From: Candidatus Poribacteria bacterium
GTDB taxonomy: Bacteria; Poribacteria; WGA-4E; WGA-3G
DNA length: 64,000 nt
Direction: 5' to 3'
Assembly: GCA_022827185.1 (NCBI GenBank)
Contig: JAJDTM010000046.1
Location: 68,644 to 132,643, forward strand
Position 1 is the first letter of the stretch; every line of letters starts with the position of its first letter. Positions 375 through 43,926 of this stretch are shown in pieces. Below the pieces are notes generated by a model. It was not told the origin of the DNA, searched no databases, and saw nothing but the letters and a program-made list of their open reading frames with translations. Both the position numbers and the translations under genes were made by a program.

Positions 375-480
375 ATAAACCCCCTAAATCCCCCTTATCA
401 GGTGGACTTTGATAGGTACCCTTCAATATAAACCCCCTAAATCCCTCTTATCAGGGGGACTTTGATAGGTACCCTTCAAT
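375..480. repeat. 53-bp tandem duplication (375-427, 428-480); each unit holds a family-A hairpin element plus 17 bp matching the ribD 3' end
   Basis: Two near-identical units ATAAACCCCCTAAATCCC(C/T)CTTATCAGG(T/G)GGACTTTGATAGGTACCCTTCAAT. Copy 2 supplies the last codons (IEGYLSKSP) and the TGA stop of ribD. Confidence 0.7.
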
Positions 481-1566
481 TAGGAAATCGGCATCGGGCA
501 TTGGCGTGATGCTAATCCTTTGCAAATGCGGTACGTCCTTCAAGCTGGAGACCCCTTCGCCGCCGATGGGTCCCGGTGCGTTCCGTCCACCGATGAGTTT
601 AGGTGCCACGAAGCACATAACCTTATCAACGATTCCGGCTGCAATGGCGGAGGCGTTGATTTCGCCGCCGCCTTCTATCAACACGCTTGTTATCTCACGT
701 TTTCCCAATATTTCCATCAAGCTTTTAAAACAGACTTGGTTTCCGTGTGCTGCTGGCGTGGTTACCACTTCCGCGCCTGCCTTTTCGAGTGCTTTAACAT
801 TCGCCATCGGTGCGTCAGGTGTTACAGCAACGATAACATCGGCACTGCTTTCGACGTTGAAAATGCGTGCGTCCGTCGGTGTCCTTCCGTGTGAATCCAG
901 CACAATCCGGGTTGCGTCTTGGCCTTCTCTATCCTGAAGCCGCGTCGTTAGTGCGGGATTATCACGTGCAACTGTGCCTCTGCCGACGAGGATCGCATCT
1001 ACTACGTCTCGGATTTCATGTCCGCGCTGTCGTGATGCTTCAGATGTAATCCATTGCGATTCGCCGGAGGTGGTCGCTATCTTCCCGTCAAGACTCATCG
1101 CAGTTTTGAGGATGACAAACGGCGTACCGGTTTGGATGTATTTCCTATGGACTTCGTTTAGTTCTGCTGCTGCCTGCGTACAGATACCTGCTTGGACGCG
1201 GATACCTGCCTTCTGAAGTTGGCGAATACCTTTGCCTGCGACGCTCGGATTCGGATCGACTTCTGCGATGTAGACGTTCGCGATGCCAGCCTGAATCACT
1301 GCCGCTGTGCAGGGCGGTGTGCGTCCCCAATGGCAACACGGCTCAAGGTTCGTGTAGAGTGTCGCACCTTTGGCATTTTCGCCTGCGGCGTTCAGGGCAT
1401 GGATTTCGGCGTGCGGGGTTCCCGCTTTTTGATGGTAACCTTCACCGATAACCTTACCGTCTTTTACGATGACTGCACCGACGAGTGGATTGGGACTAGT
1501 GCGTCCGTTTGCTTGTTTTGCCAATGCCAGTGCGCGTTGCATGAAGGTTATATGTACTTCGTTCAT
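451..1566 (-). CDS. ribD: Bifunctional diaminohydroxyphosphoribosylaminopyrimidine deaminase / 5-amino-6-(5-phosphoribosylamino)uracil reductase
   Basis: 371 aa. The N-terminal CMP/dCMP-type deaminase motifs HAEIHAL and PCxxC(LEPCCHWGRTPPC) are followed by a C-terminal RibD reductase domain. It is followed by ribE. Confidence 0.9.
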   Translation of the reverse strand: MNEVHITFMQRALALAKQANGRTSPNPLVGAVIVKDGKVIGEGYHQKAGTPHAEIHALNAAGENAKGATLYTNLEPCCHWGRTPPCTAAVIQAGIANVYIAEVDPNPSVAGKGIRQLQKAGIRVQAGICTQAAAELNEVHRKYIQTGTPFVILKTAMSLDGKIATTSGESQWITSEASRQRGHEIRDVVDAILVGRGTVARDNPALTTRLQDREGQDATRIVLDSHGRTPTDARIFNVESSADVIVAVTPDAPMANVKALEKAGAEVVTTPAAHGNQVCFKSLMEILGKREITSVLIEGGGEINASAIAAGIVDKVMCFVAPKLIGGRNAPGPIGGEGVSSLKDVPHLQRISITPMPDADFLIEGYLSKSP

Positions 1567-1634
1567 GCTGAAAACCGAAAACCTTTGCTTGTATAGTATA
1601 TCATATTTTTTTTGGAAATCAAATCATTTATTCA

Positions 1635-1727: not shown

Positions 1728-2225
1728 TTAAGGTTTCGCTGTTGCTTTCAAGGATTCGAGGATTTCTGACTGATTGACGAGATCGAATTGATGTGTGCCG
1801 ATGTACATGTATCTGATAATCCCTGTTTTGTCAATGATAAACGTTGACGGACGTGCGATGTTGTAAGCCTCAAGGCTGAGCCAGTGATAGACACCGTAGT
1901 TTTTGATGACACTCCGCGTTTTGTCTACCAATAACGGGAATGTGATACCGTTTTTATCGGCATAGCCGCGGAGTTCACGGGGCCACTGCCCGGCAATGGC
2001 AAGCGGTGTCGCTGTGTACTCGGCGTAGGTGTCAACATTTTCTTGGACAGCCGACAACTGACGGCGACTGTTCGGTCACCATGTCCCTCGGAAGAAGGTT
2101 AAGACGACGTGTTGGGTGTCTCGGTACGTTTCAAGCGAGACCTCTTCTCGCTGGTGCGATGGCAGCGTGAAGAGGGGTGCGGTATCGCCGATGTTGAGAA
2201 TTTTGTTTTTACGCGGCATGTGCAT
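1728..2225 (-). CDS. Peroxiredoxin-like (AhpC/TSA-redoxin, PRX_like2-type) thiol peroxidase with in-frame TGA at the catalytic Cys position; candidate selenoprotein
   Basis: A single minus-strand frame reads MHMPRKNKILNIGDTAPLFTLPSHQREEVSLETYRDTQHVVLTFFRGTW-[TGA at 2076-2078]-PNSRRQLSAVQENVDTYAEY...KATAKP*. The segment FFRGxW(U)Pxxrrql aligns to the FYRGxWCPxC active site of Prx-like proteins. The ORF track splits it at the TGA (its 1728..2057 ORF uses a TTG start just downstream of the TGA). A modest hairpin follows the TGA. Confidence 0.5.
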
Positions 2226-2463
2226 ATTGTACGAGATATTTCGTTTGATGTCAAGTTTTTAGGAATTGGCGGTCGGTAGTCGGCTGTCGGGGGTCAGCCA
2301 TCATCGGTGGGCAGTTGGTGGGCGTGGTTTTATGTCTTCTATTTACGAGTGGCTTGAATAGCTGCATAATGCAGCAGAGGTAGATTGGATTGAGGATCTC
2401 ACACATACCGTCATTCCCCTCTTTGATAACACCATAGGTGGCGAGTTCACTGATGATGTCATT

Positions 2464-2514: not shown

Positions 2515-5500
2515 TTACTTTTGCTTCTGCTTGGTTGAAGAGGGGAGTGCGTACATGCTTCGGCGAACTTTCACAATTTCATCGGTATTGACGAGCCGCT
2601 TGAGTTCATTTTTTATTGAGCCTGGATGTCCTTTAATGGTGTCAATGAGTTCAGATGTTTTTTTCTCGCCTGTGGCGAGTAGGGCGAAGATCTGATCACG
2701 GAGTGGGACCCGGAGAGGTTTCCCGCCTCTAAGCTTCATCAATATCCGGTTTGCTTGGCTTCTGGAGATACCTAAGACCTGTTCTACTTTTTCTCTACTG
2801 GATTCGGCAGTGAGGTTGTCGCGTTCTGTCTCAAACTGCTCACGTATGGCGATGGTTTCAGGGAGTTTATCTAACCCGCCAGCGACCTCAAAATCTTCCC
2901 AATCAAAAAACGAGGTTTCAGGTCGATCGGTGATGTTAGGCAGTGATAGACTTGTGAGCAAGACTATTGTCTTGTTTGACAAGCTGTTCAATCTGGCTCG
3001 CCCGATAATCTGTGAAAGTAAGCCTATAGCGTTCTGTTCATACACATACCGGATGCGTTCGTCTTTGTAGATGCCGAATTCTGCTTCTCCATCATAACAG
3101 ATCGGTTTTTCGTCGTTTCCGAAGAGAATCTGTGTCTTTCGCCAAGTGATGGCTGGTGACCAGTAGGGTGCGCCGACGATCCAAATGATATTTGCTGCTT
3201 CAAAATCGGCATCTTTTAACGCTTCGGTCCGTTTGAAACCCTCCACGAAACAGACATTCTCCTTTGCTGCGATGTTCTGCAGATGTCCTATTATTGGTGC
3301 GCTGGTGATAATAGCGTGCTGAACGTTTGGATTCTTGTCAATTTCGGTTTGGATACCGAGAAAAATGCGCTGTCCTATTTCGGACATGCCGAGTGCCCGC
3401 CAGTCAGTGTCGTAGTTTAAAATTGATTGTCGCGGATAGATACCTGTGCGAATCTGAAAGACCCGATTCCCCGTGATCCATGCTGTCGGTTTGATGTTAT
3501 GGACTTCAATCTCCTCATCTGGGAAGGCTCGGCGTAAATCCTGCTCAGAGAGCGTTGACGACATAAACAAGAGTCGTTTGACGCTTGGATGCAACACCGG
3601 CGGTACCCAGAACCGCATTTCTTTGCCGGTCCATAATATCGGTGCGTCGGCATCCCGTGTGTAATATTCAAAGAAACGCGTGAGTTGATGCCAAAGCGTC
3701 CAGTTCGGATTTGGATAGGCAGTTGGAAGTGCTCGAATTTTCGGGACAGTTGATGTATCCAAGATGCCCAATTCAATGGCTTGTGTCATTGACATCGGGA
3801 TTTTCATGTCTTGGTTCAATTCAAGAGCCTCAAGTTGAAAAACAGGGAGTCCTTTTGCCGTGAGTCTATCCGCGGTGTCAGTATCCATAGGAATGTAGGC
3901 ATCGGCACCGCCTTCAAATTCAATAGCAAAATGTGCCAACACTTTTTCGGTTTCATCATCTACAAACTCGCGCGGTACCACTCTACCGATTATATTAACT
4001 TGACCCATCTGCTGGATAAGTGTTGCTTCTTGCGCTTGAAATGCTTGCACAGCTGCACGGATCCGTCTGACAGGATTATCATCAACGCCGCCTTTGGTTT
4101 CTAATGCGTTTAGTAAGGCGTTGGCAAAATTCCCTAAGGTACTTTCGTGCCAGTTCACGCGCCATTCCTCTAAGATGTCTTTTGATACCTCACATTTTAC
4201 AAACAGTTTATCTGCTTCTGCTCTATCAACGATACAAAGTCGCTCAGTGCCGTCCGCGGCTTCAAGTGTTTCTGCTGCCACTTTTGCGTGTTGTGGATCC
4301 AAAAACAATCTAACAGGATTTAATATTTGTGCCTTAGTACTTTTTAATGTGGCGAATTGCGACAGATACCCACGCTGCTGACATTCTGTATAGACGGGAC
4401 ACTGTGGACAAATACTCTCGCTCGGATTTCCACCCTTTTTTTCAAGTGCATCACACCGCTTTGGATCCTCACAGACATTACCGTGTTGAAAGGGGTTCGC
4501 CATCCGTACCTCAACGGGTATTTCTTTCACCTGTTCCCATAAGTAGTGCCGAGGTCTCCTGGGTGCGACAGATGACACGTTTCGATTTTGAAAGCGTTGT
4601 TCTGTGTCTTTAGTTAGCAAGGATTTCGCAGCTAAACTGATTACGCCGCCGTTGATAACATAGGATTCTGCTGCATAACTCTTTCCGGCACCTGCTTCAG
4701 CAATGAGTCCGAGAATTCGTGCATCCCGGTTGAAAACCTGCTGCATCTGAACAGCATTTTCTTCAGGTGTTCGGTAACGGCTGTTTTCGCCTTCCAGTTT
4801 GTGTAGCACCGAAGCTGGACGTTTAATTCCCAATGGACTCAGTTCAGCTTCCCGCACGGCAAGGATCTCATCCGTTACAGGCAATCCAGTCGTCGGTACT
4901 GGTGGCAGAATACCGGTATCATCCCAGATATCTGTTATATGCGTTGCTTCGGTTGGGAGTCCAGTATCAGGTATAGCAGCGCGAACCCGGACCTCTCCGT
5001 CTTGCTCCCATAGCAAAACGTCTCCATCAGCAACGTTTCTGTCGGGGTGAGCCCAATGGTGAATGCCATCTTTTTCTTGTAGATAGGAAAACCCGCGCTT
5101 CAAGAACGCCACTCTTGCGAGATTAAGGTTGCTTGAACCGAGCGATGTCTGCAGAATAGACGTAGTTTGCGTAGCGGGTTCCGATGCCGTTTCTCCGGAG
5201 GGTGCGGGTTGGTGAAGCGTATCCCGAAGCGTGTCAATGGCGGCAAAGAGGACCTCTTTGGCAATGATCGGCGGATTTAGTAGATTTCCGATCAAAATTT
5301 CGTAACGCGCGTCCCAACGGCTATATCCTTTGTCCCCCAAGATTTCGAGATACACATCGCGATGGTGTAGATTTTCGGGAGTCGGTGTATGTTTATAGGT
5401 ATACTGCTTCGCTTCATTGGTGTTGGGATGGAGATAATTTTGAACTCTACAGGAAAAACGCAACCCACCAGACTTTGTCAGGGTCAACAAGGGGTTTGCT

Positions 5501-5943
5501 ACAGCGTTAGCGAGTGCCTCGATACAGGTTAGAACAACATCAGGTGCGTCGCAAATAGCAGCATACTTAAAATTGATGTCGTGCCATTGGGCGCCATCAC
5601 ACTCTGAAGGGACACCTGTATACACCTGAACACCCCAGGATCTGTGCCATATAGCACTGTGCCAGTCTTCTGTGCTTTGGCGTTTCAAAAACCGTTCACC
5701 TTCAAAATCCCACGGGCCGTGGTCGTGATAAGGTGCGTGTCCTATCGGCATGAAAGAGATGTCCGCCTGCTCAAGTTCATAAAGCCTTATAGGATATCTC
5801 CACGCGCAATAGGCCCTGAAATGATAAGGGAGCCCTTTGTAGAGTGCTGGTGTTATCTTTGTCTTCCGCTGCCGAAGCGGCTTTTCGTGTCGTTGGTGAC
5901 AACGCTGAATAATATCTTTTAAGGAATTCATAATTATACTCAT
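2515..5943 (-). CDS. Large multidomain replication-type protein: N-terminal Prim-Pol (bifunctional primase-polymerase)-like domain, central P-loop NTPase (GLIAEAGAGKSYA), Cys4 zinc-ribbon, C-terminal HTH; probable relic of a plasmid/phage/integrative element
   Basis: 1142 aa. The N-terminus has Prim-Pol-like motifs (..VYTGVPSE..HDINF..TKSGGLRFSCRV, cf. T.sGG.H.yf). A Walker A motif (AGAGKS) and a CxxC...CPQCP Zn-ribbon follow. The C-terminus has a winged-helix-like GISRSQANRILMKL. Confidence 0.5.
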   Translation of the reverse strand: MSIIMNSLKDIIQRCHQRHEKPLRQRKTKITPALYKGLPYHFRAYCAWRYPIRLYELEQADISFMPIGHAPYHDHGPWDFEGERFLKRQSTEDWHSAIWHRSWGVQVYTGVPSECDGAQWHDINFKYAAICDAPDVVLTCIEALANAVANPLLTLTKSGGLRFSCRVQNYLHPNTNEAKQYTYKHTPTPENLHHRDVYLEILGDKGYSRWDARYEILIGNLLNPPIIAKEVLFAAIDTLRDTLHQPAPSGETASEPATQTTSILQTSLGSSNLNLARVAFLKRGFSYLQEKDGIHHWAHPDRNVADGDVLLWEQDGEVRVRAAIPDTGLPTEATHITDIWDDTGILPPVPTTGLPVTDEILAVREAELSPLGIKRPASVLHKLEGENSRYRTPEENAVQMQQVFNRDARILGLIAEAGAGKSYAAESYVINGGVISLAAKSLLTKDTEQRFQNRNVSSVAPRRPRHYLWEQVKEIPVEVRMANPFQHGNVCEDPKRCDALEKKGGNPSESICPQCPVYTECQQRGYLSQFATLKSTKAQILNPVRLFLDPQHAKVAAETLEAADGTERLCIVDRAEADKLFVKCEVSKDILEEWRVNWHESTLGNFANALLNALETKGGVDDNPVRRIRAAVQAFQAQEATLIQQMGQVNIIGRVVPREFVDDETEKVLAHFAIEFEGGADAYIPMDTDTADRLTAKGLPVFQLEALELNQDMKIPMSMTQAIELGILDTSTVPKIRALPTAYPNPNWTLWHQLTRFFEYYTRDADAPILWTGKEMRFWVPPVLHPSVKRLLFMSSTLSEQDLRRAFPDEEIEVHNIKPTAWITGNRVFQIRTGIYPRQSILNYDTDWRALGMSEIGQRIFLGIQTEIDKNPNVQHAIITSAPIIGHLQNIAAKENVCFVEGFKRTEALKDADFEAANIIWIVGAPYWSPAITWRKTQILFGNDEKPICYDGEAEFGIYKDERIRYVYEQNAIGLLSQIIGRARLNSLSNKTIVLLTSLSLPNITDRPETSFFDWEDFEVAGGLDKLPETIAIREQFETERDNLTAESSREKVEQVLGISRSQANRILMKLRGGKPLRVPLRDQIFALLATGEKKTSELIDTIKGHPGSIKNELKRLVNTDEIVKVRRSMYALPSSTKQKQK

Positions 5944-6031: not shown

Positions 6032-7156
6032 TCACATCAATTCGACGAAGACTTCGTTTGCGAGGAAAAGTCCACGGCGGGTGAGTCGGAGATGGGTGGC
6101 GGTGCGTTCAAGTAATTGAAGGTCTATCCATTTTTTGAGGATGTCTCCGAACGCAGCTTCAATTTCTTCACCGAAGCGGTTTTGGTAATCTTCAAGAGAG
6201 ATGCCTTCCCGTTTGCGGAGGGCGAGCATGAGGGTTTCTGCCTTTTCCGCGTTTCCGGTCAGGTGTTCTGTGTTGGCGATGGGTTTGTTGCGTTTGGAGA
6301 GTTTGTTAATGTAAGGGGCGATGCCTCGAATATTGGTGTAGCGCACGCCGTTGATATACCCACACGCGCCCGCACCGAGTCCTATGCACGGTTGGTTGTT
6401 CCAGTAGACGAGATTGTGTTTTGCATAATGGTCGGGTCTGGCGAAGTTACAGATCTCGTAGTGGGTGTACCCGTGCGCGGTGAGTGTCTTAATAGTATAT
6501 TGGAACATATCCGCTTCAGTGTCCTCAGTCGGGATGTGAAGTTCACCGGCTTGCCACCATTCATAAAATGGGGTATCCTGCTCCATGACGAGATTATAGG
6601 CTGAAATGTGGGCGGGGTTGAGAGAGATGACTTCATTGAGTGTGTGGTGCCATGCTTCCATCTTCTGGTCGGGCAGCGCGAAGATGAGATCGATGTTGAT
6701 GTTCTCAAATCCGCTTTCGCGGGCGAGATAGTAACTTTCAAGGAACTCGGTAACGGTGTGGGTTCTGCCTAACTGTTTCAGGGTCTCATCTTGCATCGCT
6801 TGCAAACCGAAACTGAGCCGATTCACACCGTTGTTTTTCATCACGTTAAGCTTCTCGTTGTCAACGGTGCCCGGATTACATTCTACGGTGATTTCAGCGT
6901 CCGGTGTTATTTGGAAATGCTGCTGGATGTCGATGAAAAGCTGTGCTAAGGCATTAGTAGAGAGGATGGAAGGGGTGCCGCCGCCGATGAAAACCGTTTG
7001 TAGGGGTTCGGTCTCTGAGGCGTAGAGTTCCATCTCTGTGCGAAGTGCTTGTAGGTATGCTTTCGCCTGTTCTTTGTGAAAAGTGTATGTATTGAAGGCG
7101 CAATAATAGCATTTCGTGGCGCAAAATGGGATATGGATGTATACGGAAGATGCCAT
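6032..7156 (-). CDS. hemW: Radical-SAM heme chaperone HemW / coproporphyrinogen-III oxidase-like protein
   Basis: The CxxxCxxC radical-SAM motif (FCATKCYYCAF) and the HemN/HemW C-terminal domain are present. I trimmed the start to ATG at 7156 (MASSVYIHIPFC); the ORF-track start at 7333 would overlap the upstream ADH by 176 nt. Confidence 0.8.
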   Translation of the reverse strand: MASSVYIHIPFCATKCYYCAFNTYTFHKEQAKAYLQALRTEMELYASETEPLQTVFIGGGTPSILSTNALAQLFIDIQQHFQITPDAEITVECNPGTVDNEKLNVMKNNGVNRLSFGLQAMQDETLKQLGRTHTVTEFLESYYLARESGFENINIDLIFALPDQKMEAWHHTLNEVISLNPAHISAYNLVMEQDTPFYEWWQAGELHIPTEDTEADMFQYTIKTLTAHGYTHYEICNFARPDHYAKHNLVYWNNQPCIGLGAGACGYINGVRYTNIRGIAPYINKLSKRNKPIANTEHLTGNAEKAETLMLALRKREGISLEDYQNRFGEEIEAAFGDILKKWIDLQLLERTATHLRLTRRGLFLANEVFVELM

Positions 7157-7157
7157 A

Positions 7158-8261
7158 TTATTCTGTAAATTCCAATCCGATTCGGATGGCTGAGCCTGTG
7201 TCTGCGTAGGAGAAGGCTTCGTTAATGTCGCTGAATGGGAAGGTGTCCGAGATGATTTTGTGGAACGGATATTTGTCGCGTGTACGCACGAGAAAATCGA
7301 GGGCGCGCGGGATAACCCACGGTTCGTAGACAATCACGCCGCGAATTGCTTTGCTACAGCGGACGATGTTGCCCGGGTCAATCTCTGTGGGGAATCCGAG
7401 GTTGATGTTTCCGATCCAGAGGTAGCGTCCACCCCAACGGAGCATTTCTATGCCTTCCGCAAGGACACGCGGCGAACCGACAAACTCCGCGACGAGATCC
7501 GCGCCGATGCTACTTGTCTGATCGAGTACGTATTCCACCCGTGATTTCATATCGATTTCGTCAACGTTGAGCGTCTCATCCGCACCGAACTCCCGTGCCA
7601 GAGATAGGCGTGCGGGCAACCGGTCGAAAACGATGATTTTTCCTGCACCCATCTCGCGTGCGACGGCTGTTGCGTAGAGCCCGAGTCCACCCGCCCCTTG
7701 GATAACGACGGTATCGCCGAGGGTAATGCCGATCTGATTGAGTCCGTAGATGACTTCGGATAAGGCGCAGTTGATCGGGGATACCAGCGCGTCTGAAAGT
7801 TCGTCGGGGACCTTGAACACCCAATGCCCGGGTTTCATGTAGTAGTATTCGCCGTAGGCACCGTGGAAATGCGGCGGTTGCTCGCTGGAGACACCGAGCC
7901 AATCTCTGTAGCGGTTCGGGCACCCGGGTTTCCCGTTGAGGCACATCCAGCAGTGCTGACACGGTTTGAAATAGGAGTAGGCGATCCGATCGCCTTCGGT
8001 AAGCGGTTGTCCGATGCTATCGGTTGTGATGTTACGTCCCATCGCTTCAATCGTGCCGATCATTTCATGTCCCAACACTTGCGGGATACCGCTCTCGATT
8101 TTGGGTCCGTGTCCGCGCCAGAAATGCAGGTCGGAGCCGCAGATATTCGCCATACGGATTCGCACAAGCATGTCGTCGGGTGTGACGGCTGGGACTGGGT
8201 ACTCCCGGAATTCCATCGGGGTTTGCGGTTGTGTGAAGATGGCGACTTTTCCGGTTTTCAT
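7158..8261 (-). CDS. Zinc-dependent alcohol dehydrogenase family (MDR; threonine/sorbitol dehydrogenase-like)
   Basis: Catalytic Zn motif GHEMIG, a structural Zn Cys cluster (CQHCWMCLNGKPGC) and a Rossmann GAGGLG. I trimmed the start to ATG at 8261 (MKTGKVAIF), which is preceded by AAGGAAAT RBS. Confidence 0.8.
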   Translation of the reverse strand: MKTGKVAIFTQPQTPMEFREYPVPAVTPDDMLVRIRMANICGSDLHFWRGHGPKIESGIPQVLGHEMIGTIEAMGRNITTDSIGQPLTEGDRIAYSYFKPCQHCWMCLNGKPGCPNRYRDWLGVSSEQPPHFHGAYGEYYYMKPGHWVFKVPDELSDALVSPINCALSEVIYGLNQIGITLGDTVVIQGAGGLGLYATAVAREMGAGKIIVFDRLPARLSLAREFGADETLNVDEIDMKSRVEYVLDQTSSIGADLVAEFVGSPRVLAEGIEMLRWGGRYLWIGNINLGFPTEIDPGNIVRCSKAIRGVIVYEPWVIPRALDFLVRTRDKYPFHKIISDTFPFSDINEAFSYADTGSAIRIGLEFTE

Positions 8262-8452
8262 TTTTTTAGATTTCCTTGCGGTTCGGTTAGATACGTCTGG
8301 AATTTGAGGGGCTGTTCCGTAGACCCGCTTTCCACTTCGTTTCAAGCTACATCCTTCTCCCGAAAATTTGATGTTCAACTCCGTAGATTCGTCACAAACA
8401 TTGTTTTGGAATTCGCAACTGTGCCTTTGATGATGAACTTTTCCTTCAAGAA

Positions 8453-8776
8453 CTAAACAGTGACGACTCGTTGTTGTCCCTTCCTATTTTCTGAGGGAAT
8501 AATACGGATTTCAATATCGCGGTTCAATTGGTTCAGAAACGTCAACAATCGCTCTACACTATAATGATTAAACCTTCCCTGTTTTAGCCGGGAGATCTCA
8601 GGCTGCTTCACACCTAAAATCTTTGCCGCTTCAGCCTGGGTTAACTTGCGATCTTCTATAATTTGGAACACCTCAAATCCAAGTTTCGCTTTAAGAAATA
8701 GTTCCTCCGCGTCCGGCAAATCTAAATCCTTAAAGACATTGCCTGAGCTCTTTTCAAATTTAATCTTCTTGCTCAT
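8453..8776 (-). CDS. higA: HigA-like XRE-family HTH antitoxin
   Basis: 107 aa with an HTH LTQAEAAKILGVKQPEISRL. It overlaps the upstream toxin ORF by 17 nt, the typical HigB-HigA order. Confidence 0.7.
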   Translation of the reverse strand: MSKKIKFEKSSGNVFKDLDLPDAEELFLKAKLGFEVFQIIEDRKLTQAEAAKILGVKQPEISRLKQGRFNHYSVERLLTFLNQLNRDIEIRIIPSENRKGQQRVVTV

Positions 8777-9134
8777 AGTTTTCCTCCAGTTCTTGCGCCA
8801 TTTTGAGGCGTCTCTTGATAAGGTCCACCTCTTTCTTGGGAGTTTTAATTCCGCGCTTCGATTTTTTTTGAAAACAATGCAGCACGTAAACTCGCTCTCC
8901 GATTTTCACCGCATATACGGCGCGATAAGTATTGGTCCGATAATCCGATCGTATCTCGAAAACCCCTGAGCCAGCGCCTTTAAATGGTTTAGCTGCTGGA
9001 GACATGCTTCCGGCCTGGACAATAAATAAAGCGTCCCCAATGTCTTTTTGGACAGGCGGCGGAAATTCCTTTAGTCTTGCCTTGGAGTCTCCGATCCATA
9101 CGGCTTCTCTTAAGTTTATCCTCTTATGATCCAT
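8760..9134 (-). CDS. higB: HigB/RelE-superfamily (Gp49-like) type II toxin
   Basis: 124 aa. The segment VYVLHCFQKKSKRGIKTPKKEVDLIKRRLK is typical of the Gp49/HigB addiction-module killer family. Confidence 0.65.
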   Translation of the reverse strand: MDHKRINLREAVWIGDSKARLKEFPPPVQKDIGDALFIVQAGSMSPAAKPFKGAGSGVFEIRSDYRTNTYRAVYAVKIGERVYVLHCFQKKSKRGIKTPKKEVDLIKRRLKMAQELEENYEQED

Positions 9135-9220
9135 GATATATTATAACCAAATGGATATAATTTTTTCAAGGATAATGATCTCCATGAAGCCCAATGATTG
9201 TATATTTACGTATAGGCTTC

Positions 9221-9610
9221 TTAATATTCATCAAAATTGATAACTTTCCAGCGTCCATCAATTTCTTCGGTGTGGATTACGACTTTTCGGGTGTGGGTTG
9301 TTGTGCCACGGATTTCGATAGTAAGTTTGTAGTTAAAGAGTACGTGCGTTGCCTCTTCTTTACCGGTGAGCTCGTATTCAATCTTTGGCATTTCGTCAAA
9401 TTGTTGCCCTGGGACGCGGACTTCACTGACGCGTTCGATTTCGTCTTTGAGTTTTTCTGCGGCGAGACCGTGGCAGAGTTGTAGGGCTGCCGTTTGGTCT
9501 GCGCGCTGGTAATAGTTATAGATAAAGTCTTCACAAACTGCTTGCGGGGTATTCCTATTTGAACACGCGAGTATTAACAAAATAGACAGTAGGAGATATT
9601 GTGGTTTCAT
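9221..9610 (-). CDS. Small lipoprotein of unknown function
   Basis: A signal peptide with a lipobox (LILACS). I see no recognisable catalytic motif. Confidence 0.45.
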   Translation of the reverse strand: MKPQYLLLSILLILACSNRNTPQAVCEDFIYNYYQRADQTAALQLCHGLAAEKLKDEIERVSEVRVPGQQFDEMPKIEYELTGKEEATHVLFNYKLTIEIRGTTTHTRKVVIHTEEIDGRWKVINFDEY

Positions 9611-17415: not shown

Positions 17416-18417
17416 TTATTCGTCCCAAGGCAATGGCACGCCTAATCGTTCACTGACTTCGCGTGCGGATTCCTGTTCTGCTTCCCCGTAGCGGATACCT
17501 TCGCGGCGATGCTGTTCTGTACGTTCCGTTTCAATTGCACCCGGTAGTAACGCCTTCTCGGTGCCAGGCAGCGGTTCGTAGGTTTCACGAACATCATGCA
17601 CCATGCGGTCGACTTCAGTGTGGAAAACATCAGGTGGCACAACGGATTCGATATTTATTGCGAGTACCATGCTGCCTTGTGGCGGTTGCCATTTTGCGGT
17701 GTCCTCCGGTGGGGGTTCGGTGAAGCCGGTCAATGCCCCACCGAGCAGATGTGCTATAGCGGTATAGCCGATGCTCTTGAAGAAAGCAGCGGGGATCATT
17801 GAAAGCAGCGCGTCGAAATCAGGACCGCGTTGGTAATCCGCCATAATACAGGTCGCTGCGTCGAGTACAACCGGTGGTTCATCGCCGGAGGGGATCGCGA
17901 AACAGATGGGTGGATTGCCGAAATAACCGAGCTGGGGTTTAGGGTCTCGGTTTCCGGCGTTGCCGTGGTTCCGTGATCCCTGTACCGAGAAACCGATACA
18001 TCCAGCCTCGTTGCACAAACGCGCGTAGTGACCTGCAGACCCGTAGTGTCCGATGTAACGCACCAGCCCCATCCCAATGCCTACTTCTTTCGCTTTGGCG
18101 ATGGCGTGTTCAGTGGCACGCACCATCGGCAGGTAGCCGAGGGTGCCGTTTCCGTCAAGCACGACGGCGGTTGGTGTTTCATGGATGACGCGGATATTCG
18201 GGTTTGGGTTGAGACCTCCGTTTTCAAAGCCTCTACAATATCGGTTAACAGTCTGTGTGCCGTGACTACGGACCCCGCGTAAGTCGGAGTTGACGAGTAA
18301 TCGGCTGATGAGTGTGGCGTGTTCGTGTGTGAGGCCGGCTTTCTCAAAGCAAGCGGTAGAGAAGTTGAGAAGCCTTTCCTCATCTACTAAGACGAAATTT
18401 TCTGGTGGTCTGTTCAT
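17416..18417 (-). CDS. Ldh_2 family oxidoreductase (malate/L-lactate/ureidoglycolate/sulfolactate dehydrogenase family)
   Basis: Contains GVRSHG and GMGLVRYIGHYGSAGHY, typical of the Ldh_2 family. It is a tandem paralog of 18585..19589. Confidence 0.7.
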   Translation of the reverse strand: MNRPPENFVLVDEERLLNFSTACFEKAGLTHEHATLISRLLVNSDLRGVRSHGTQTVNRYCRGFENGGLNPNPNIRVIHETPTAVVLDGNGTLGYLPMVRATEHAIAKAKEVGIGMGLVRYIGHYGSAGHYARLCNEAGCIGFSVQGSRNHGNAGNRDPKPQLGYFGNPPICFAIPSGDEPPVVLDAATCIMADYQRGPDFDALLSMIPAAFFKSIGYTAIAHLLGGALTGFTEPPPEDTAKWQPPQGSMVLAINIESVVPPDVFHTEVDRMVHDVRETYEPLPGTEKALLPGAIETERTEQHRREGIRYGEAEQESAREVSERLGVPLPWDE

Positions 18418-18584: not shown

Positions 18585-19589
18585 CTATTCGTCCCAAGGG
18601 AGTGGTACGCCTAATCGTTCACTGACCCCGCGTGCTGATTCCTGTTCCATTTCCCCGTAACGGATGCCTTCGCGGCGGTGATGTTCTGTGCGTTCCGTTT
18701 CAATTGCACCCGGCAGTAGTGCCCTATCGGTTCCCGGCAACGGTTCATAAGTTTCGCGGACATCGTGCGCCATGCGATCGACTTCTGCGTTGAAAACAGC
18801 GGTTGGTACAACGGATTCAATGTCTATTGCGAGTACCATCCCGCCCATTCTACTGCCGCTCCATTTTGCGGTGTCTTCCGGTGGTGGTTCAGTAAATCCT
18901 GTCAATGCGCCGCCGAGTAGGCTTGCCACGGCGGTATAGCCGATACTCTTGAAGAAAGCAGCAGGTATCACTGAAAGGAGCGCATCGAAATCAGGACCGC
19001 GCTGGTAGTCTGCCATAATACAGGTCGCTGCATCGAGTACAACCGGCGGTTCCTCACCGGAAGGAATCGCGAAACAGATGGGTGGGTTGCCGTAGTAGCC
19101 GAGCTGGGGTTTGGGATCTTGGTTTCCAGCGTTGCCTTGGTTCTGGTATCCTTGCACTGAAAAACCGATGCAACCGTTTTCGTTACAGAGACGCGCATAA
19201 TGTCCTGCGGATCCGTAGTGTCCGATATAACGGACGAGTCCCATCCCGATGCCGACCTCTTTCGCTTTGGCAATTGCGTGCTCAGTCGCACGTACCGTCG
19301 GAAGGTAGCCGAGGGTACCGTTTCCGTCAAGTACGACAGCGGTCGGTGTTTCGTGGATGATTCGGATATCCGGATTAGGGTTAAAACTCCCGTTTTCAAA
19401 GCCGCCGCAATATCCGTTGACGGTCCGAGTGCCGTGGCTGCGGACACCGCGTAGGTCGGAATTGACGAGCAGTCGGCTGATGAGTGCGGCGTGCTCGTGT
19501 GTGATACCGGCTTTCTCAAAGCAGGCGGTAGAGAAGTTAAGAAGCCGTTCTTCGTCTACAAGGACGAAATCTTCTGGCGGTCGATTCAT
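18585..19589 (-). CDS. Ldh_2 family oxidoreductase (tandem paralog)
   Basis: Roughly 85-90% amino-acid identity to 17416..18417, with the same motifs. Confidence 0.7.
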   Translation of the reverse strand: MNRPPEDFVLVDEERLLNFSTACFEKAGITHEHAALISRLLVNSDLRGVRSHGTRTVNGYCGGFENGSFNPNPDIRIIHETPTAVVLDGNGTLGYLPTVRATEHAIAKAKEVGIGMGLVRYIGHYGSAGHYARLCNENGCIGFSVQGYQNQGNAGNQDPKPQLGYYGNPPICFAIPSGEEPPVVLDAATCIMADYQRGPDFDALLSVIPAAFFKSIGYTAVASLLGGALTGFTEPPPEDTAKWSGSRMGGMVLAIDIESVVPTAVFNAEVDRMAHDVRETYEPLPGTDRALLPGAIETERTEHHRREGIRYGEMEQESARGVSERLGVPLPWDE

Positions 19590-37990: not shown

Positions 37991-40900
37991 ATGCCAGCAC
38001 TCCTAATTTTTCAGCACGGGCAGTCCTTGACCTTCGCTATTATCAACCGTAGACCGAGTCAGCGAGACGGGGCCCGCTATGTGCTTGAAAAGATGGTACT
38101 TATCAAGGATATTGACGTTGCCACTCCGCACCGCGCACACCTTGACATCTTGGCAGACCTGTCGCTTGATGCCCTCTATCACCGGCACGAATTCACGAAC
38201 TTCTTGGAGCTCCATCAGGCGTGGCAGCGGACGTTGGACACCTCCGAACTCAACAGACGTTTCTTCAAAGAGATTGCCGATTGGTATTTCTGGGCAGTTG
38301 ATAAGGTGACGTTTCCATCGGATGCAGGCGACGACAAGACTGTTCGTAACGCGACCTGCATCATCCGTTTGATTACACGGCTGATCTTCGTCTGGTTTCT
38401 CAAAGAGAAAAACCTTGTGCCGGACGCGCTTTTTAACGAGGAAGCTATTGCGGAACTGCTCACAAGTCTGGATGCTCAGGAAAGCACCTATTACAAAGCC
38501 GTTCTCCAAAACCTATTTTTTGCAACCTTGAATCAGGAGATGAACACACCTGAAAAACCGAACACCCGCAAGTTCCGAGGGGAGGGCCGGCAGCACTATA
38601 ACATCACTTCGCTCTACCGCTATAAGCGTTATTTCAAGGATCCAGACGCGGCACTGCGGCTGTTTGAGACGGTCCCGTTCCTCAACGGTGGTCTGTTTGA
38701 GTGTCTGGATAAATCCGCACCGGATGATGCGAAAACGATCTTGCGTATAGACGGTTTCTCTGATAGAGACGACAACCCGCTCTATGTGCCAAACGAACTC
38801 TTCTTCTCCGAACCACAGGCGGTCAATCTCAACGCCGTCTATGGCACGAAAAATAGCAGGTATACCGTGCGTGGATTAATCCATATCCTCAACCGCTACA
38901 AATTTACGATTGCAGAGAACACACCGATAGAGGAAGAAGTCGCATTGGATCCCGAATTGCTCGGACAGGTCTTTGAAAACCTGCTTGCGGCGTTCAACCC
39001 CGAAACCGGCACGACTGCGCGTAAACAGACGGGTTCGTTCTATACACCCCGCGAAATCGTCAACTACATGGTGGACGAATCCCTCATCGCTTATCTCAAA
39101 AACACAGTTCGTAGTAGGGCAATTCATTGCCCGTCGGAAACCAAACTCCGTCATCTCCTATCCTACAACGACGAACCCCACCAATTCACCGATACTGAAG
39201 TTGAACATCTCATCAACGCCATAGACACACTGAAGATTCTGGATCCCGCCTGCGGCTCTGGTGCGTTCCCGATGGGCATCCTGCACAAACTCGTCTTCCT
39301 GCTCGGTAAACTTGACCCGCGCAACGCTCAGTGGCGACAACGGCAAATTGACCGCGTCCAAGCTGCCATTGCTACATCAGAGAAGATTGACGATAGCACC
39401 TTCCGTGAAAGTGCTATTGCTGAACTGGAACGCGAAATAGAGAGCATCAACGATGCATTTGAACGCAATGCACTCGACTACGGCAGAAAGCTCTATCTCA
39501 TAGAGAACTGCATCTACGGTGTGGACATCCAACCTATCGCGACACAGATCGCTAAACTCCGGTTTTTTATCTCGCTGATCGTTGAGCAGAAAATTGACGA
39601 TACGCGCGAAAACCGCGGGGTGCGTCCGTTGCCGAATTTGGAGACGAAGTTTGTCGCAGCGAATACGCTCCTCGGTGTAGAGAAACCCGAACAGATGATG
39701 CTTCGCAACCCAGGGATAGACAGCAAAGAGAAGGCATTAGCGGAGGTGCGCCGTCGGCACTTCACTGCGCGAACACCACGCACGAAAGATCGCTACAGAC
39801 AACGCGATGCGGAACTCCGCGCCGAAATCAGCGGATTGCTCAAACGGGACGGGTTTCCGAGTGAGACGACTGAAAAGATTGCTCATTGGGATCCATACAA
39901 CCAGAACGCCTCCGCAGATTTCTTTGACCCAGAATGGATGTTCGGTATTACGGAGGGGTTTGATGTCGTGATTGGCAACCCGCCTTACGTCCGTCAAGAG
40001 AAAATCAAGCATCTCAAACCCACGTTGAAAAAGCACTATACCTGTTACACAGGCGCAGCCGACCTCTACGTCTATTTCTATGAGCGCGGGCTGCAACTGC
40101 TGAGTCCAAGCGGTATCCATACGTTTATCTGTTCTAACAGTTGGCTGGATGTCAACTACGGCGCGCCGTTACAGAAGTATCTCTTAGATAACACAGCGGG
40201 TGCGGTTATCTGCCATAGCGAAGCGGAACGCGAATTTGAGAGTGCCGACATCAACACCATCGTTAGCCTTCTCCAAAACGGCACCCCCGATGCCGATTCT
40301 CACTTCCGCTTTCTCACCTTCAAGACGTTCATCGGCGATCCAGATATAGAAAATCGTCGAGAGCGGACACGCACGTATACCGAGTTGGGACAAGCAGGCA
40401 CGCGGGACAACAGATACACAGGCGACAAATGGGGTGGGAAATACCTCCGCGCCCCGGACATCTACTGGACGATTTTAGAGAAAGGCAAAGATAAACTGGT
40501 ACGCCTCGGTGATGTTGCCGAGGTGAGGCGAGGGTTCACAACCGGTGCAAATGAATTTTTCTATCTTGACGCGGATCGGGTTCAGGAATGGGGTATTGAA
40601 TCGGAATATCTGAGGCACGTTATCAAAAGTCCGCGTGAGTGCAAAAGTATCCGTGTGGATCCGAGTCAGTTGCAGTTCAAGTTGTTTATGTGCCATGCAG
40701 ACAAGGCAGCATTGACAGGCACTGCGGCGTTAGAATACATCAAATGGGGTGAATCGCAAGGGTATCATCAGCGACCGAGTTGTAAAGGACGGGTGCGTTG
40801 GTGGGATTTGGGTGAAGAGTCTGGAAATAGTATTTTTGTTAAAGAAGCAGATGAAACTTCGGCGGTATTTTACAACCCTGACAACTATCTCGTTGATTGC

Positions 40901-41275
40901 CGTCTCTACTATGCGAATCTTTCTAATCACGTCCTTTTGTTCTTAAATTCTGTCATTGGCGCAATGTTCTTTGAGCTATACAGCCGTTCAGGACTTGGCA
41001 AAGGTGCAAGAAGTATGATGGTTTCGGATTATGAGGATGTTCCAACTTTAGAGAATATAAATGTAGATAAGAAAGCGACTGAGTTGGTTTTAAGGCAAAT
41101 TTGCCCTTTGTCTCCCCGAAAATTTGCTAATTCTGAATCTGAGTGGTCTACCCTTGACGCAATCATCTTTGATGCCCTTGATCTCACACAAGGTGAACGG
41201 GATGGTGTGTATGAAGCGGTTGTTAATCTGGTGGAATCTCGGTTGCGGAAGGCGCGGAGTTTGAAGGGGAAATAG
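37991..41275 (+). CDS. Eco57I/MmeI/PglX-like gamma-class N6-adenine DNA methyltransferase with its own C-terminal TaqI_C-type target-recognition region; no recognisable nuclease domain
   Basis: 1094 aa. The N-terminal helical region carries PFLNGGLFE. Motif X is GSFYTPREIV, motif I is LDPACGSGAFPMG, and motif IV is VIGNPPYV. The C-terminal TRD-type region reads VRLGDVAEVRRGFTTGANEFFYL ... RWWDLGEE ... LLFLNSVIGAMFFEL. Confidence 0.75.
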   Translation: MPALLIFQHGQSLTFAIINRRPSQRDGARYVLEKMVLIKDIDVATPHRAHLDILADLSLDALYHRHEFTNFLELHQAWQRTLDTSELNRRFFKEIADWYFWAVDKVTFPSDAGDDKTVRNATCIIRLITRLIFVWFLKEKNLVPDALFNEEAIAELLTSLDAQESTYYKAVLQNLFFATLNQEMNTPEKPNTRKFRGEGRQHYNITSLYRYKRYFKDPDAALRLFETVPFLNGGLFECLDKSAPDDAKTILRIDGFSDRDDNPLYVPNELFFSEPQAVNLNAVYGTKNSRYTVRGLIHILNRYKFTIAENTPIEEEVALDPELLGQVFENLLAAFNPETGTTARKQTGSFYTPREIVNYMVDESLIAYLKNTVRSRAIHCPSETKLRHLLSYNDEPHQFTDTEVEHLINAIDTLKILDPACGSGAFPMGILHKLVFLLGKLDPRNAQWRQRQIDRVQAAIATSEKIDDSTFRESAIAELEREIESINDAFERNALDYGRKLYLIENCIYGVDIQPIATQIAKLRFFISLIVEQKIDDTRENRGVRPLPNLETKFVAANTLLGVEKPEQMMLRNPGIDSKEKALAEVRRRHFTARTPRTKDRYRQRDAELRAEISGLLKRDGFPSETTEKIAHWDPYNQNASADFFDPEWMFGITEGFDVVIGNPPYVRQEKIKHLKPTLKKHYTCYTGAADLYVYFYERGLQLLSPSGIHTFICSNSWLDVNYGAPLQKYLLDNTAGAVICHSEAEREFESADINTIVSLLQNGTPDADSHFRFLTFKTFIGDPDIENRRERTRTYTELGQAGTRDNRYTGDKWGGKYLRAPDIYWTILEKGKDKLVRLGDVAEVRRGFTTGANEFFYLDADRVQEWGIESEYLRHVIKSPRECKSIRVDPSQLQFKLFMCHADKAALTGTAALEYIKWGESQGYHQRPSCKGRVRWWDLGEESGNSIFVKEADETSAVFYNPDNYLVDCRLYYANLSNHVLLFLNSVIGAMFFELYSRSGLGKGARSMMVSDYEDVPTLENINVDKKATELVLRQICPLSPRKFANSESEWSTLDAIIFDALDLTQGERDGVYEAVVNLVESRLRKARSLKGK

Positions 41276-41340
41276 ATTAAATTCAGTTGATATTTGTTCA
41301 CCAGATGTGGTATTATTAACCCAAAAGAGAGGATTAGGTA

Positions 41341-43398
41341 ATGGCGAAAAAAATATCAAAGCGTGTTAAAACACTAAGTGGGTTTATGAAATGGGTGGAA
41401 CAATTCAACGATGGGCAATATCTGTTTCGAGGTGTTTCAAAACACACTCACAAATTGGAAGCATCTGCTTATCGTCGTCTGCCAGAAGCGGAAAGAAATA
41501 ATCAAAATAAACTCCTCAAAATCAATCAGGAGTTGATAGATAAAGCACGTCTTCTGGGGCACGATCAGAAAGATGGACATTACCTTTCTGATTTAGAACT
41601 GTTGGCAGAACTTCAGCACTTTGGTGCTGCTACCTGCTTGATAGATTTCACACGTAGCGCGCAGATCGCACTATGGTTTGCTTGCCAACAGAGTTCGACT
41701 GGAGAAGCAAATGGAAAAGTCTTCGCTGTGCGTTCTGACGATCCCGTACTCTTTAGAACCATTACCCCTAAATTGGTAGTCGAAAAAGACATTGGTTACT
41801 TTTTTGAAGAGGATGAGAGCGGGATATCTCCGCTATATCAATGGCAACCCAAGCAACAGAATAATCGTGTTATCGGCCAGCAATCCATTTTTATATTCGG
41901 TGGATCTCAAATTGAGGTGGCAGCAGAATGTGTAATTCTAAAAAGTAGTAAATCAGAAATTCTGGATTCTTTGGACAACTCTGCAGGTATCACTGAAGCG
42001 AGTATATATCCTGATTTTGACGGTTTCGCGCGTCTACATGCCCAAAATAAGCCATACATTGAACCGAATGTTCAAAGTTATCTGCAACGCGGGACCGAAG
42101 CACACTTAGAAGGCAAGCTTGATGATGCAATTGCCTACTACAGTGAAGTTATATCACTACAGCCAAACACTTCTACGCTAACTATAGCTTACCAAGGTCG
42201 TGGTTTTGCGTACTTTTTCAAACGTGAGTTTGACCCCGCTATTAAAGACTTTACCAAGGCAATAAATTCTAATTCCAAAGATGCCGTAACTTATTACAGT
42301 CGTGGGACAGTCTATAGTCTTACACGCGAATTTGATCTCGCTATCGCTGACTATACTAAAGCTATAGAACTTAATCCTGAGTTTGCTGAAGTCTACGTTC
42401 ATCGTGGTGCTGCTTACATTGACAATAACAAAGTTGATTTGGCCCTCAAGGACTATAACAAAGCGATGGAGCTTAAACCCGATGACCCTGTTACTTATGT
42501 CAGGCAAGGTATTGCTTACGGCAAAAAGGGGGAAATTGACACAGCTATTAAAAATCTTGGTAAGGCAATAGAACTCAATCCAAAATTTGCAGAAGCCTAC
42601 GCTACTCGTGGTGCTGCTTACATTGACAAAAAGGAACTTGATTTGGCTATTAGCGACTGTACGAAGGCGATAGAATTAGACCCAACTGATGCTACAGTAT
42701 ATTGCTACCGCGGTCGTGCTTACAACGAAAAAGGCATTTTTAACGAGGCGATTGATGACTTGACTCAAGCGATAGAACTGGATCCACATCTTGCCGAAGC
42801 TTACCTGAACCGTGGTAATGCCTACGATCATAAGAAAGATTTCAACAAGGCGATTGGTGATTATACTAAAGCGATAGAACTGGATCCAGATGACACTGAC
42901 TTCTACTGCTATCGCGGTTTTGCTTACCAACGCAAAGGTGATCTCAATTTGGCAATTGATGACTTTACCGAAGCGATAAAGAGAAATCCGAACTTTGCTG
43001 AAGCTTATCTGGATCGTGGATGTATTTATGGAGAAATAAGAGATTTTGACAAGGCGATTAATGATTTCACCAAATTGGTACAACTCAGACCTGATGATAG
43101 CAGAGCATACACTGCTCGCGGTGTTACTTACCGCAGGAAAGGTAATTTTAACTTAGCGATTAATGACTTTAGTAGAGGAATAAAAGTAGATCCAGATGAT
43201 GCTAAAGCTTATTACCACCGGGCCGATCTACGATTACACTTAAGGGAATTCAAAAAAGCCAAATCAGACCTAACAACTGCCAGAGACATGGGGGTAAATA
43301 TTATCGCTGCATTCCATAATAGCTACGAAAGCATTGAAGATTTTGAGCAGAAAACCGATATTCAGTTACCAGAAGACATCGCCGCGCTCTTGACCTAG
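41341..43398 (+). CDS. FRG-domain protein fused to ~13 TPR repeats and a conserved C-terminal module
   Basis: An N-terminal FRG motif (QYLFRGVSKHTHKLEASAYRR) and 34-aa TPR units (..A..Y..A..LDP..A.AY..RG.AY...). The C-terminal ARDMGVNIIAAFHNSYESIEDFEQKTDIQLPEDIAALL is shared with three neighbouring TPR proteins. Confidence 0.65.
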   Translation: MAKKISKRVKTLSGFMKWVEQFNDGQYLFRGVSKHTHKLEASAYRRLPEAERNNQNKLLKINQELIDKARLLGHDQKDGHYLSDLELLAELQHFGAATCLIDFTRSAQIALWFACQQSSTGEANGKVFAVRSDDPVLFRTITPKLVVEKDIGYFFEEDESGISPLYQWQPKQQNNRVIGQQSIFIFGGSQIEVAAECVILKSSKSEILDSLDNSAGITEASIYPDFDGFARLHAQNKPYIEPNVQSYLQRGTEAHLEGKLDDAIAYYSEVISLQPNTSTLTIAYQGRGFAYFFKREFDPAIKDFTKAINSNSKDAVTYYSRGTVYSLTREFDLAIADYTKAIELNPEFAEVYVHRGAAYIDNNKVDLALKDYNKAMELKPDDPVTYVRQGIAYGKKGEIDTAIKNLGKAIELNPKFAEAYATRGAAYIDKKELDLAISDCTKAIELDPTDATVYCYRGRAYNEKGIFNEAIDDLTQAIELDPHLAEAYLNRGNAYDHKKDFNKAIGDYTKAIELDPDDTDFYCYRGFAYQRKGDLNLAIDDFTEAIKRNPNFAEAYLDRGCIYGEIRDFDKAINDFTKLVQLRPDDSRAYTARGVTYRRKGNFNLAINDFSRGIKVDPDDAKAYYHRADLRLHLREFKKAKSDLTTARDMGVNIIAAFHNSYESIEDFEQKTDIQLPEDIAALLT

Positions 43399-43416
43399 CC
43401 AACGGACGAAAAAGAT

Positions 43417-43697
43417 CAACAAACCAAGAGTTTTCGCAGACTTCCACAACGCAGATGCAAAAGGCAGGGGTCCGATTGAACTGTGCCGGACAGCGGCGGA
43501 CCTTGAACGTCAGAAAATTATGCTGCGAAATGGATAGGCTCTTATTATCTATAGTGAAGAGTTGGAGGTTGAACGCATTGTTTGCTACTCCGAAAAAGAA
43601 AAGTTGTGGACAGGGGTGATTGATTGGGATGCCATTCAAGAGATAAAACCTGTCCCCTCTCAAATAACTCCGCAAATCCGTGACATAGCGCGGTAAT
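43417..43697 (+). pseudogene. Degenerate copy of the small protein gene found intact at 50794..51078 (no start codon, in-frame TAG)
   Basis: Nucleotide homology to 50806-51078 is ~90%, but ...CTGCGAAATGGATAGGCT has a TAG where the intact copy has CAG (Q), and there is no in-frame ATG. Confidence 0.45.
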
Positions 43698-43926
43698 GTG
43701 ATATACGCCTACACCTGATGAGATGGCTTCTTTTCAACTAATGCCTTAAGCATAGCATCGGGACGCGGTATTGTCTCATCGCGGATTGCACAGATTTCGC
43801 AGATTTTTTGAATCTGTATCATCTAGCATTATAGGTGACCGGTATGAAATCCGCGTCATCCGTACTATCTGTGCAAATCCGAGATTCAGACGATTGCGAG
43901 ATTTCATCCTCAAAGAAATTGGGATT

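Follow-up and report, generated by a model that had tools for sequence, protein, structure and literature searches.

The 64,000-nucleotide stretch of Candidatus Poribacteria contig JAJDTM010000046.1 analysed here (the whole of which we call the window) raises the question of whether a TGA codon that interrupts a gene for a peroxiredoxin (Prx)-like protein on the minus strand is read as a stop or as selenocysteine (Sec). We find that this codon, UGA48 of the predicted message, very probably encodes Sec in a 163-residue Prx-like protein with the AhpC/TSA fold. In particular, the minus-strand frame that runs from position 2225 to position 1728 reads MHMPRKNKILNIGD...VVLTFFRGTW-TGA-PNSRRQLSAVQEN...ATAKP-TAA, and the TGA at 2078..2076 is its single interruption. 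A first-pass annotation of this DNA, which had proposed a candidate Sec protein, described the continuous frame correctly but took it to encode 165 residues from an ATG at 2225 (MHMPRKNK). We place the start at the ATG at 2219 instead, giving a protein of 163 residues that begins MPRKNK, because this codon is conserved in all 51 of the orthologous loci described below and because transcription probably begins downstream of 2225. As had been pointed out, the full gene is hidden from the mechanical list of open reading frames (ORFs), which contains a 109-residue piece from a TTG at 2057, a 49-residue upstream piece (2225..2076), and nothing else of it. With Cys put in place of the TGA codon, the Pfam model AhpC-TSA (PF00578) matched residues 12-140, bridging the TGA, with an E value of 6.9e-29 and 100.7 bits (cut-off, 26), which is far beyond chance; Redoxin (5.6e-15) was the only other Pfam match, and GSHPx was not matched. 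A scan for other TGA-bridged pairs of ORFs in the 64-kb window left this gene alone. (Note that the remaining TGA-bridged candidates were rejected, each overlapping a longer ORF on the opposite strand or in a different frame.)

Orthologues were located by scanning a single genome for each species with peptide patterns that left the TGA site out, which yielded 51 loci from 50 species-level Poribacteria genomes. Codon 48 is TGA in all 51 loci, many of which come from complete chromosomes, OZ253447.1, OZ241378.1, and OZ220722.1 among them. The TGG that precedes the TGA is invariant, the ATG of M-P-R-K-N-K is kept in 51/51, the first 150 codons align without gaps, and no frameshifts were found in the 51 loci. 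Mean pairwise synonymous divergence (dS) among the orthologues is about 1.3-1.4, and the ratio of nonsynonymous to synonymous divergence (dN/dS) is 0.082 for codons 1-47 versus 0.067 for codons 49-150. Because these two values are nearly equal, the part of the gene before the TGA is constrained as strongly as the rest. Thus, the in-frame TGA is a real feature of a gene under strong purifying selection rather than an isolated error, and the suggestion that the upstream part might prove to be an unrelated pseudogene is contradicted both by its dN/dS and by the AhpC-TSA domain that bridges the TGA. Moreover, the residues P49, N50, S51, R52, and Q54, encoded after the TGA but ahead of the TTG, are invariant while several synonymous codons are used for them; from the TGA to the first possible restart codon, codons 49-54 change synonymously only. 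The fact that these codons are invariant as protein and change only synonymously argues that translation passes the TGA in frame. The base that follows the UGA (window position 2075) is C in 51/51 orthologues because Pro49 is invariant. UGA-C is the weakest, or leaky, termination context in bacteria and would favour recoding.

The homologues that carry Cys indicate which residue the TGA replaces. Among 80 full-length homologues (140-260 residues), 53 have a CxxC motif in the context F-x-R-G-x-W-C-P-x-C, and the first Cys of this motif stands in the column of the TGA, as the alignment with Cys homologues proposed in the first-pass annotation was meant to establish; the closest Cys form (P0123) reads C-P-H-A. 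What did not hold is the claim that the TGA occupies the position of the peroxidatic Cys. In alignments with the best relatives of solved structure, AhpE (Rv2238c; E value 1.9e-15) and BCP (8.4e-15), the TGA lies opposite the Thr or Ser of PxxxT/SxxC, Ser51 lies opposite the peroxidatic Cys, and Arg44 lies opposite the Pro, such that the protein departs from the canonical Prx signature (Pro to Arg44, Thr to Sec48, Cys to Ser51). The predicted Sec is therefore at the thioredoxin-type attacking position, the first of CxxC, and not at the peroxidatic position of a Prx. Ser51 is invariant (51/51), 34 of the 51 orthologues are cysteine-free, and there is no conserved Cys position. R44, W47, R52, Q78, W79, H112, W113, and R123 are invariant as well. 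Scores against two selenoprotein-related models fell well below their cut-offs (PrxU, NF040737, 30.4 bits versus 270; the SelL-related NF040769, 39 bits versus 120). We also observed Asp at the Sec/Cys site in some members of the family (P0173, P0168, and P0233, which read D-P-N-S, D-P-D-A, and D-P-D-G), and these are apparently redox-inactive forms of the same scaffold.

A candidate bacterial selenocysteine insertion sequence (SECIS) lies shortly downstream of the UGA (Table 1). When synonymous diversity is measured in windows of six codons, the lowest value in the gene (0.24, versus a median of 0.72) falls on codons 52-57, which is to say 13-30 nucleotides past the TGA. Here Arg52 and Arg53 are nearly always encoded by CGC or CGT, Gln54 is CAG in 51/51 whereas CAA prevails at most other Gln positions (36, 59, and 144), and Leu55 is TTG in 50/51 whereas other Leu positions draw on five or six codons. 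With the U of the UGA numbered 1, the sequence can pair in two registers. In register A nucleotides 14-19 pair with 24-29 (window 2065..2050) around the loop A20-G21-U22-U23, and 88% of cells are paired; in register B nucleotides 8-17 pair with 23-32 (2071..2062 with 2056..2047) around the loop Y-C-A-G-U, and 81% of cells are paired. G21-U22 is apical in both, as part of an invariant CAGUU apex. The published consensus for the bacterial SECIS (bSECIS) consists of a loop of 3-9 nucleotides with G at position one or two, a stem of 4-16 bp, a spacing of 16-37 nucleotides between UGA and loop, and a minimum free energy of -7.5 kcal/mol or lower (PMC13188914). Register A fits the geometry of this consensus (loop AGUU, spacing 16 nucleotides, stem 5-6 bp), and the AGUU loop with the 16-nucleotide spacing is found in 47 of 56 scanned sequences, comprising the 51 from Poribacteria and five from outside relatives. 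A 29-nucleotide segment of the window adopts register B with a folding energy of -9.2 kcal/mol (z = -2.9; 1 of 200 shuffles equal), and this register places the G fourth in the loop. The hairpin had been described in the first-pass annotation as a GCCG/CGGC stem extended by ACA/UGU: the stem is confirmed and so is the extension within the window, but the extension is not kept across the orthologues, in which its central A:U pair is present in 5/51.

The same architecture is found outside Poribacteria. The representative search returned 50%-identity clusters of N-terminal fragments that end exactly in ...RGTW, and C-terminal fragments that begin a few codons later; in the DNA of five outside relatives the arrangement of 47 codons followed by TGA is kept. 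In Actinomycetota metagenome-assembled genomes (L052/L053) the motif is U-P-N-A and the candidate hairpin is an 8-bp stem, GCGUACAUG-GGC-CAUGUACG, whose loop GGC lies 21 nucleotides past the UGA. A sequence from a metagenomic run (L057), also U-P-N-A, has this stem with one C-G pair turned into U-A, a double change after which the two bases still pair. In a 4.85-Mb metagenomic contig (L054) the motif is U-P-N-S and the hairpin a perfect one in register A, GUCGCC-AGUU-GGCGAC, in which U15:A28 replaces the C15:G28 of the commonest poribacterial sequence, again with pairing kept. The candidates in two further metagenomic contigs are weak: in L056 (U-P-N-S) a 5-bp stem with the loop CGGGC 20 nucleotides past the UGA (-5.2 kcal/mol), and in L055 (U-P-N-C) a hairpin with the loop GUU 21 nucleotides past it (-4.6 kcal/mol). 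A constant UGA together with differing candidate hairpins at one place is the signature expected of bacterial Sec decoding.

Elsewhere TGA is an ordinary stop codon. It terminates ribD (a full-length TIGR00326 match) and the TIR/TPR gene in the window, where 9 of the 37 ORFs of at least 150 residues end in TGA, and of the orthologues of the Prx-like gene 34 finish with TAA, 14 with TGA, and 3 with TAG. The first-pass annotation had cited ribD and the TIR gene as grounds for thinking global recoding unlikely, and both that usage and that judgement are borne out. A search of 5.8 billion protein sequences found 156 homologues. Among the 120 listed, nearly all are fragments of about 100-120 residues that hold the post-TGA part only, several of them named Candidatus Poribacteria, and the only full-length entries among the matches listed are three with W at the site (FFRGTWWPNSRRQL); this W is the product of gene calling in code 4 on short contigs. 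Public records thus carry the gene as a 47-residue fragment and a fragment of 106-120 residues, as gene callers halt at the TGA, and name the fragments 'peroxiredoxin family protein' or 'hypothetical protein'; about 150 database clusters consist of nothing but pieces of about 100-120 residues. (Note that the representative search also contained Prx-like proteins with W at redox positions, as W-P-Y-C and W-x-x-W, in P0218, P0251, and P0263; these probably hide further UxxC/UxxU selenoproteins, SelL-like and with two Sec residues, that were translated by code 4.)

Several other accounts of the TGA have to be weighed against decoding as Sec. Were translation to stop there, the product would be the 109-residue C-terminal protein started from the TTG at 2057, with or without a separate 47-residue peptide. 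Every gene caller predicts this ORF and its TTG, codon 55, is present in 50/51 orthologues, but the invariance of the TTG is accounted for by the hairpin apex CAGUUG, no Shine-Dalgarno-like sequence precedes it, and the synonymous-only changes in codons 49-54 indicate that the codons just before it are translated. The 47 upstream codons are, moreover, under a dN/dS like that of the rest, and the AhpC-TSA domain covers both parts, such that the fragment would be left with neither the active site nor the first strands; we regard such a restart as highly improbable. A pseudogene, or a TGA created by an assembly or sequencing error, could not have been excluded from one window alone, but is refuted by the comparison: 51 independent assemblies, complete long-read chromosomes among them, agree in the TGA, are free of frameshifts, and show strong purifying selection. 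Reassignment of TGA throughout the genome, to Trp (code 4) or to Gly (code 25), is likewise refuted: the three database entries that give W at this codon would agree with it, but they come from short contigs called in code 4, and TGA ends ribD, the TIR gene, 9/37 of the longer ORFs in the window, and 14/51 orthologues of the gene itself.

The UGA might instead be read through with an amino acid other than Sec, that is, with Cys inserted by a SelC*/tRNA-ReC-type tRNA together with SelB, or with Trp or Cys inserted by near-cognate decoding. In keeping with read-through, C follows the UGA without exception, and UGA-C is a leaky context. Transfer RNAs that decode UGA as Cys with a SECIS have been described, and have been sought in genomes that encode Sec-type hydrogenases (PMC13582414). 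Against Cys insertion, TGA is kept in 51/51 loci at a dS of about 1.3 even though TGC and TGT are one substitution away, which implies that the UGA must give something beyond Cys, and SelA and SelD, which are required for Sec alone, are reported in poribacterial genomes; Trp at the nucleophile position of CxxC would inactivate the site. We consider insertion of Cys or Trp improbable.

Decoding as Sec also has points that weigh against it, and these concern both the machinery and the hairpin. ARAGORN detected no tRNA-Sec in the 64-kb window, nor in any of 50 loci, and tblastn with approximate E. coli queries confirmed no selA, selB, or selD in the window together with poribacterial loci amounting to about 1 Mb. 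The counts of COG1921 'SelA' in published tables may be inflated by DgaE-type paralogues. The candidate hairpin is weak, since the core of register A has -7.0 kcal/mol in the window versus the consensus threshold of -7.5, and two registers compete. Covariation counts within Poribacteria were not above those of shuffles in either register, RNAalifold found no consensus structure among the 51 sequences, and Rfam, at gathering and at permissive thresholds, gave neither a SECIS nor any other family. An AlphaFold2 model from a three-sequence alignment had a mean predicted local distance difference test score of 36.5 and was unusable. For a downstream fold with a SECIS-like apical loop, which the first-pass annotation had proposed as a check, the results are mixed: G and U are apical, whereas the energy is -7.0 kcal/mol in register A, the G is fourth in the loop in register B, and a 75-nucleotide fold of the whole region is no better than shuffles (z = -0.7). 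What speaks for the candidate SECIS is thus where it lies, what its loop contains, and the synonymous constraint on it; covariation does not support it.

For the Sec machinery of the carrier genomes we rely on what is reported in the literature. Candidatus Poribacteria WGA-3G has two members of COG1921 (SelA), one of COG3276 (SelB), and one of COG0709 (SelD), and the poribacterial bins 44 and 70 have similar counts (Slaby et al. 2017, Table S4, PMC5649159); the WGA-3G genome is the source of one of our loci (L025), which holds the TGA gene. A Sec-type group 4 hydrogenase has also been reported in Poribacteria (2026 survey). NCBIfam and Pfam searches of 16 other proteins of the window returned no Sec machinery. 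A SelA-like ORF at 8403-9596 of another locus (L049) was rejected, as NCBIfam assigns it to the DgaE ammonia-lyase family, which are pyridoxal phosphate (PLP) enzymes, and not to SelA. In L049, a locus from one divergent Poribacteria genome, this DgaE-family ORF is the immediate upstream neighbour of the selenoprotein gene.

With these points set against it, we still judge incorporation of Sec to be the very probable reading, because the TGA is conserved across the phylum, purifying selection is as strong before it as after it, and the synonymous minimum lies over the hairpin, and because Cys occupies the same column in homologues, TGA is a true stop elsewhere, and SelA, SelB, and SelD COGs are reported. 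The original proposal of a Sec protein is supported by the 51/51 TGA codons, the dN/dS of 0.082 and 0.067, the aligned Cys, and the use of TGA as a stop at other genes.

On this reading of UGA48 as Sec, a working scheme can be proposed. SelB-bound Sec-tRNA(Sec) would, to judge from conservation, be drawn to the codon during translation by the small GC-rich hairpin, which begins 5-11 nucleotides past the UGA and displays an invariant apical G-U about 18-20 nucleotides downstream of it. The U-P-N-S motif would then open the first helix, with Sec in the role of the attacking Cys of a thioredoxin-like CxxC (the position of Thr in a true Prx) and Ser in place of the second Cys, which corresponds to the Prx peroxidatic Cys. 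The selenolate would be the sole redox-active residue, as most orthologues are cysteine-free. A cycle of the type used by glutathione peroxidase (GPx), 1-Cys Prx, or monothiol enzymes is likely, in which the selenolate would attack a hydroperoxide, a disulfide, or a sulfenate, and the selenenic acid or selenenyl-sulfide so formed would be resolved by an external thiol. Indeed, because most orthologues have no Cys, an oxidised selenium intermediate would need a thiol from outside the protein. We infer a catalytic role that is peroxidase-like or that of a thiol-disulfide oxidoreductase, carried out by one selenol with an external thiol.

To judge from its motif, the protein would resemble GPx (UxxT), as well as thioredoxin-fold enzymes of the monothiol or 1-Cys kind, in having Sec at the N-terminus of helix 1, a hydroxyl at +3, and resolution by an external thiol; it differs from GPx in sequence membership, the GSHPx model giving no match. 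A bolder version of the same idea, which we think unlikely, is that the protein is a cysteine-free, single-Sec peroxidase in which the two active-site roles of a Prx are swapped, a GPx-like solution on a Prx scaffold. If this were true, such an enzyme would be kept by every sampled member of Poribacteria and made from a leaderless mRNA, it may have a substrate or partner unlike those of known Prx-like selenoproteins, and its constant place ahead of ribD would hint at flavin metabolism.

The gene adds a member to a known kind of selenoprotein and does not open a new category. As the first-pass annotation stated, Prx-like selenoproteins are an established bacterial family; they have been catalogued since 2004-2008. 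Prx-like thiol:disulfide oxidoreductase selenoproteins with a thioredoxin-like UxxC have been described since 2004-2005 (PMC1088965), Sec-containing Prx-like proteins are abundant in ocean metagenomes (PMC2398784), and the Prx-like oxidoreductases (PF00578, UxxC/UxxU; Kryukov & Gladyshev 2004) are the 'Prx-like 1' of the Sargasso Sea and Global Ocean Sampling (GOS) surveys. The poribacterial protein has in common with the UxxC oxidoreductases a distant homology to Prx and a Sec at the thioredoxin-like first position, unlike the Sec-Prx proteins with TxxU. It differs from them in having Ser at +3 and usually no Cys, and therefore an intramolecular selenenyl-sulfide would be impossible; the outside relative L055, in contrast, does have UxxC. 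With PrxU (TxxU, NF040737) and canonical Prx proteins (AhpE, BCP/PrxQ) it shares the fold, but its Sec lies three residues earlier than that of PrxU, and PxxxTxxC reads R-G-T-W-U-P-N-S. The closest match by description is a UxxS family of AhpC/TSA proteins (Peroxiredoxin-like, cd02970; representative MDX2448127.1), listed as 'predicted with high confidence' in a 2026 review of the prokaryotic selenoproteome and attributed there to Zhang & Gladyshev 2007 (PMC13188914), which has the same AhpC/TSA fold, a single Sec, and the UxxS motif (U-P-N-S here). The searchable literature does not mention the poribacterial gene, its conservation in 50 species, or its link to ribD.

The promoter predicted upstream of the gene bears on the choice of start codon (Table 1). 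Its -10 box ends 6 nucleotides ahead of the ATG at 2219 and is abutted by the ATG at 2225. Boxes of the TTGACA and TAnAAT types occur ahead of the gene in most of the orthologous loci, and in 36/50 loci there is a TAnnnT hexamer that ends exactly 6 nucleotides before the ATG. A gap of this length leaves no room for a Shine-Dalgarno sequence. The mRNA of the selenoprotein is thus probably leaderless or nearly so, with a predicted transcription start, and in that case the candidate SECIS would probably lie about 150 nucleotides from the mRNA 5' end.

Directly downstream of the Prx-like gene in 47/51 loci is ribD, which in the window has a promoter-like site of its own (1622..1595). Outside Poribacteria the gene has other neighbours, which leaves a functional tie to riboflavin synthesis unsupported. 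On the upstream side, a relative of the 1142-residue ORF is present in only 6/51 orthologous loci, and this side of the selenoprotein gene looks like a variable insertion spot. Farther away in the window, a plus-strand cluster at 37991-48017 resembles a defence island.

Table 1. Positions of the predicted selenoprotein gene, its signals, and other features in the window
Feature	Position	Strand	Remarks
Prx-like selenoprotein coding sequence (predicted)	1728..2219	minus	163 codons; ATG 2219, Sec codon 48, stop TAA 1730..1728
In-frame TGA, predicted Sec codon 48	2076..2078	minus	within R-G-T-W-U-P-N-S
Candidate bacterial SECIS hairpin	2047..2071	minus	core stem 2065..2050 GCCGUC/GUCGGC; apical CAGUU 2060..2056
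Sigma-70-type promoter (predicted)	2226..2254	minus	TTGACA-17 nt-TACAAT; 11/12 consensus positions
ribD	451..1566	minus	full-length TIGR00326, 378.8 bits; TGA stop
1142-residue ORF	2515-5943	minus	no Pfam or NCBIfam matches; between hemW (6032-7333) and selenoprotein gene
Ldh_2 (malate/L-lactate dehydrogenase family) pair	17416-18417, 18585-19589	minus	near-identical, adjacent
Eco57I-type restriction-modification methylase	37991-41275	plus	
FRG-domain TPR protein	41341-43398	plus	
TIR-TPR protein with TaqI_C domain	43771-46581	plus	
SMC/AAA ATPase	46578-48017	plus	
TPR-UPF0175 genes	48338-49663, 51134-52543		after the defence-like cluster
Extracytoplasmic function (ECF) sigma factor-beta-propeller pair	54240-57263, 60189-63182	minus	near-identical, about 1000 residues each; two other ORFs between

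Because every public record examined has the gene either split or truncated, a conserved redox enzyme of this whole sponge-symbiont phylum is invisible to functional surveys. Our findings predict that Poribacteria use Sec in a core, vertically inherited gene, in line with the enrichment of selA and selB that was observed earlier in sponge symbionts. Moreover, the UxxS, UxxA, and UxxC Sec proteins predicted here, together with their Cys homologues, form a natural set on one scaffold, and one that would allow it to be asked what Sec adds when there is no resolving cysteine.

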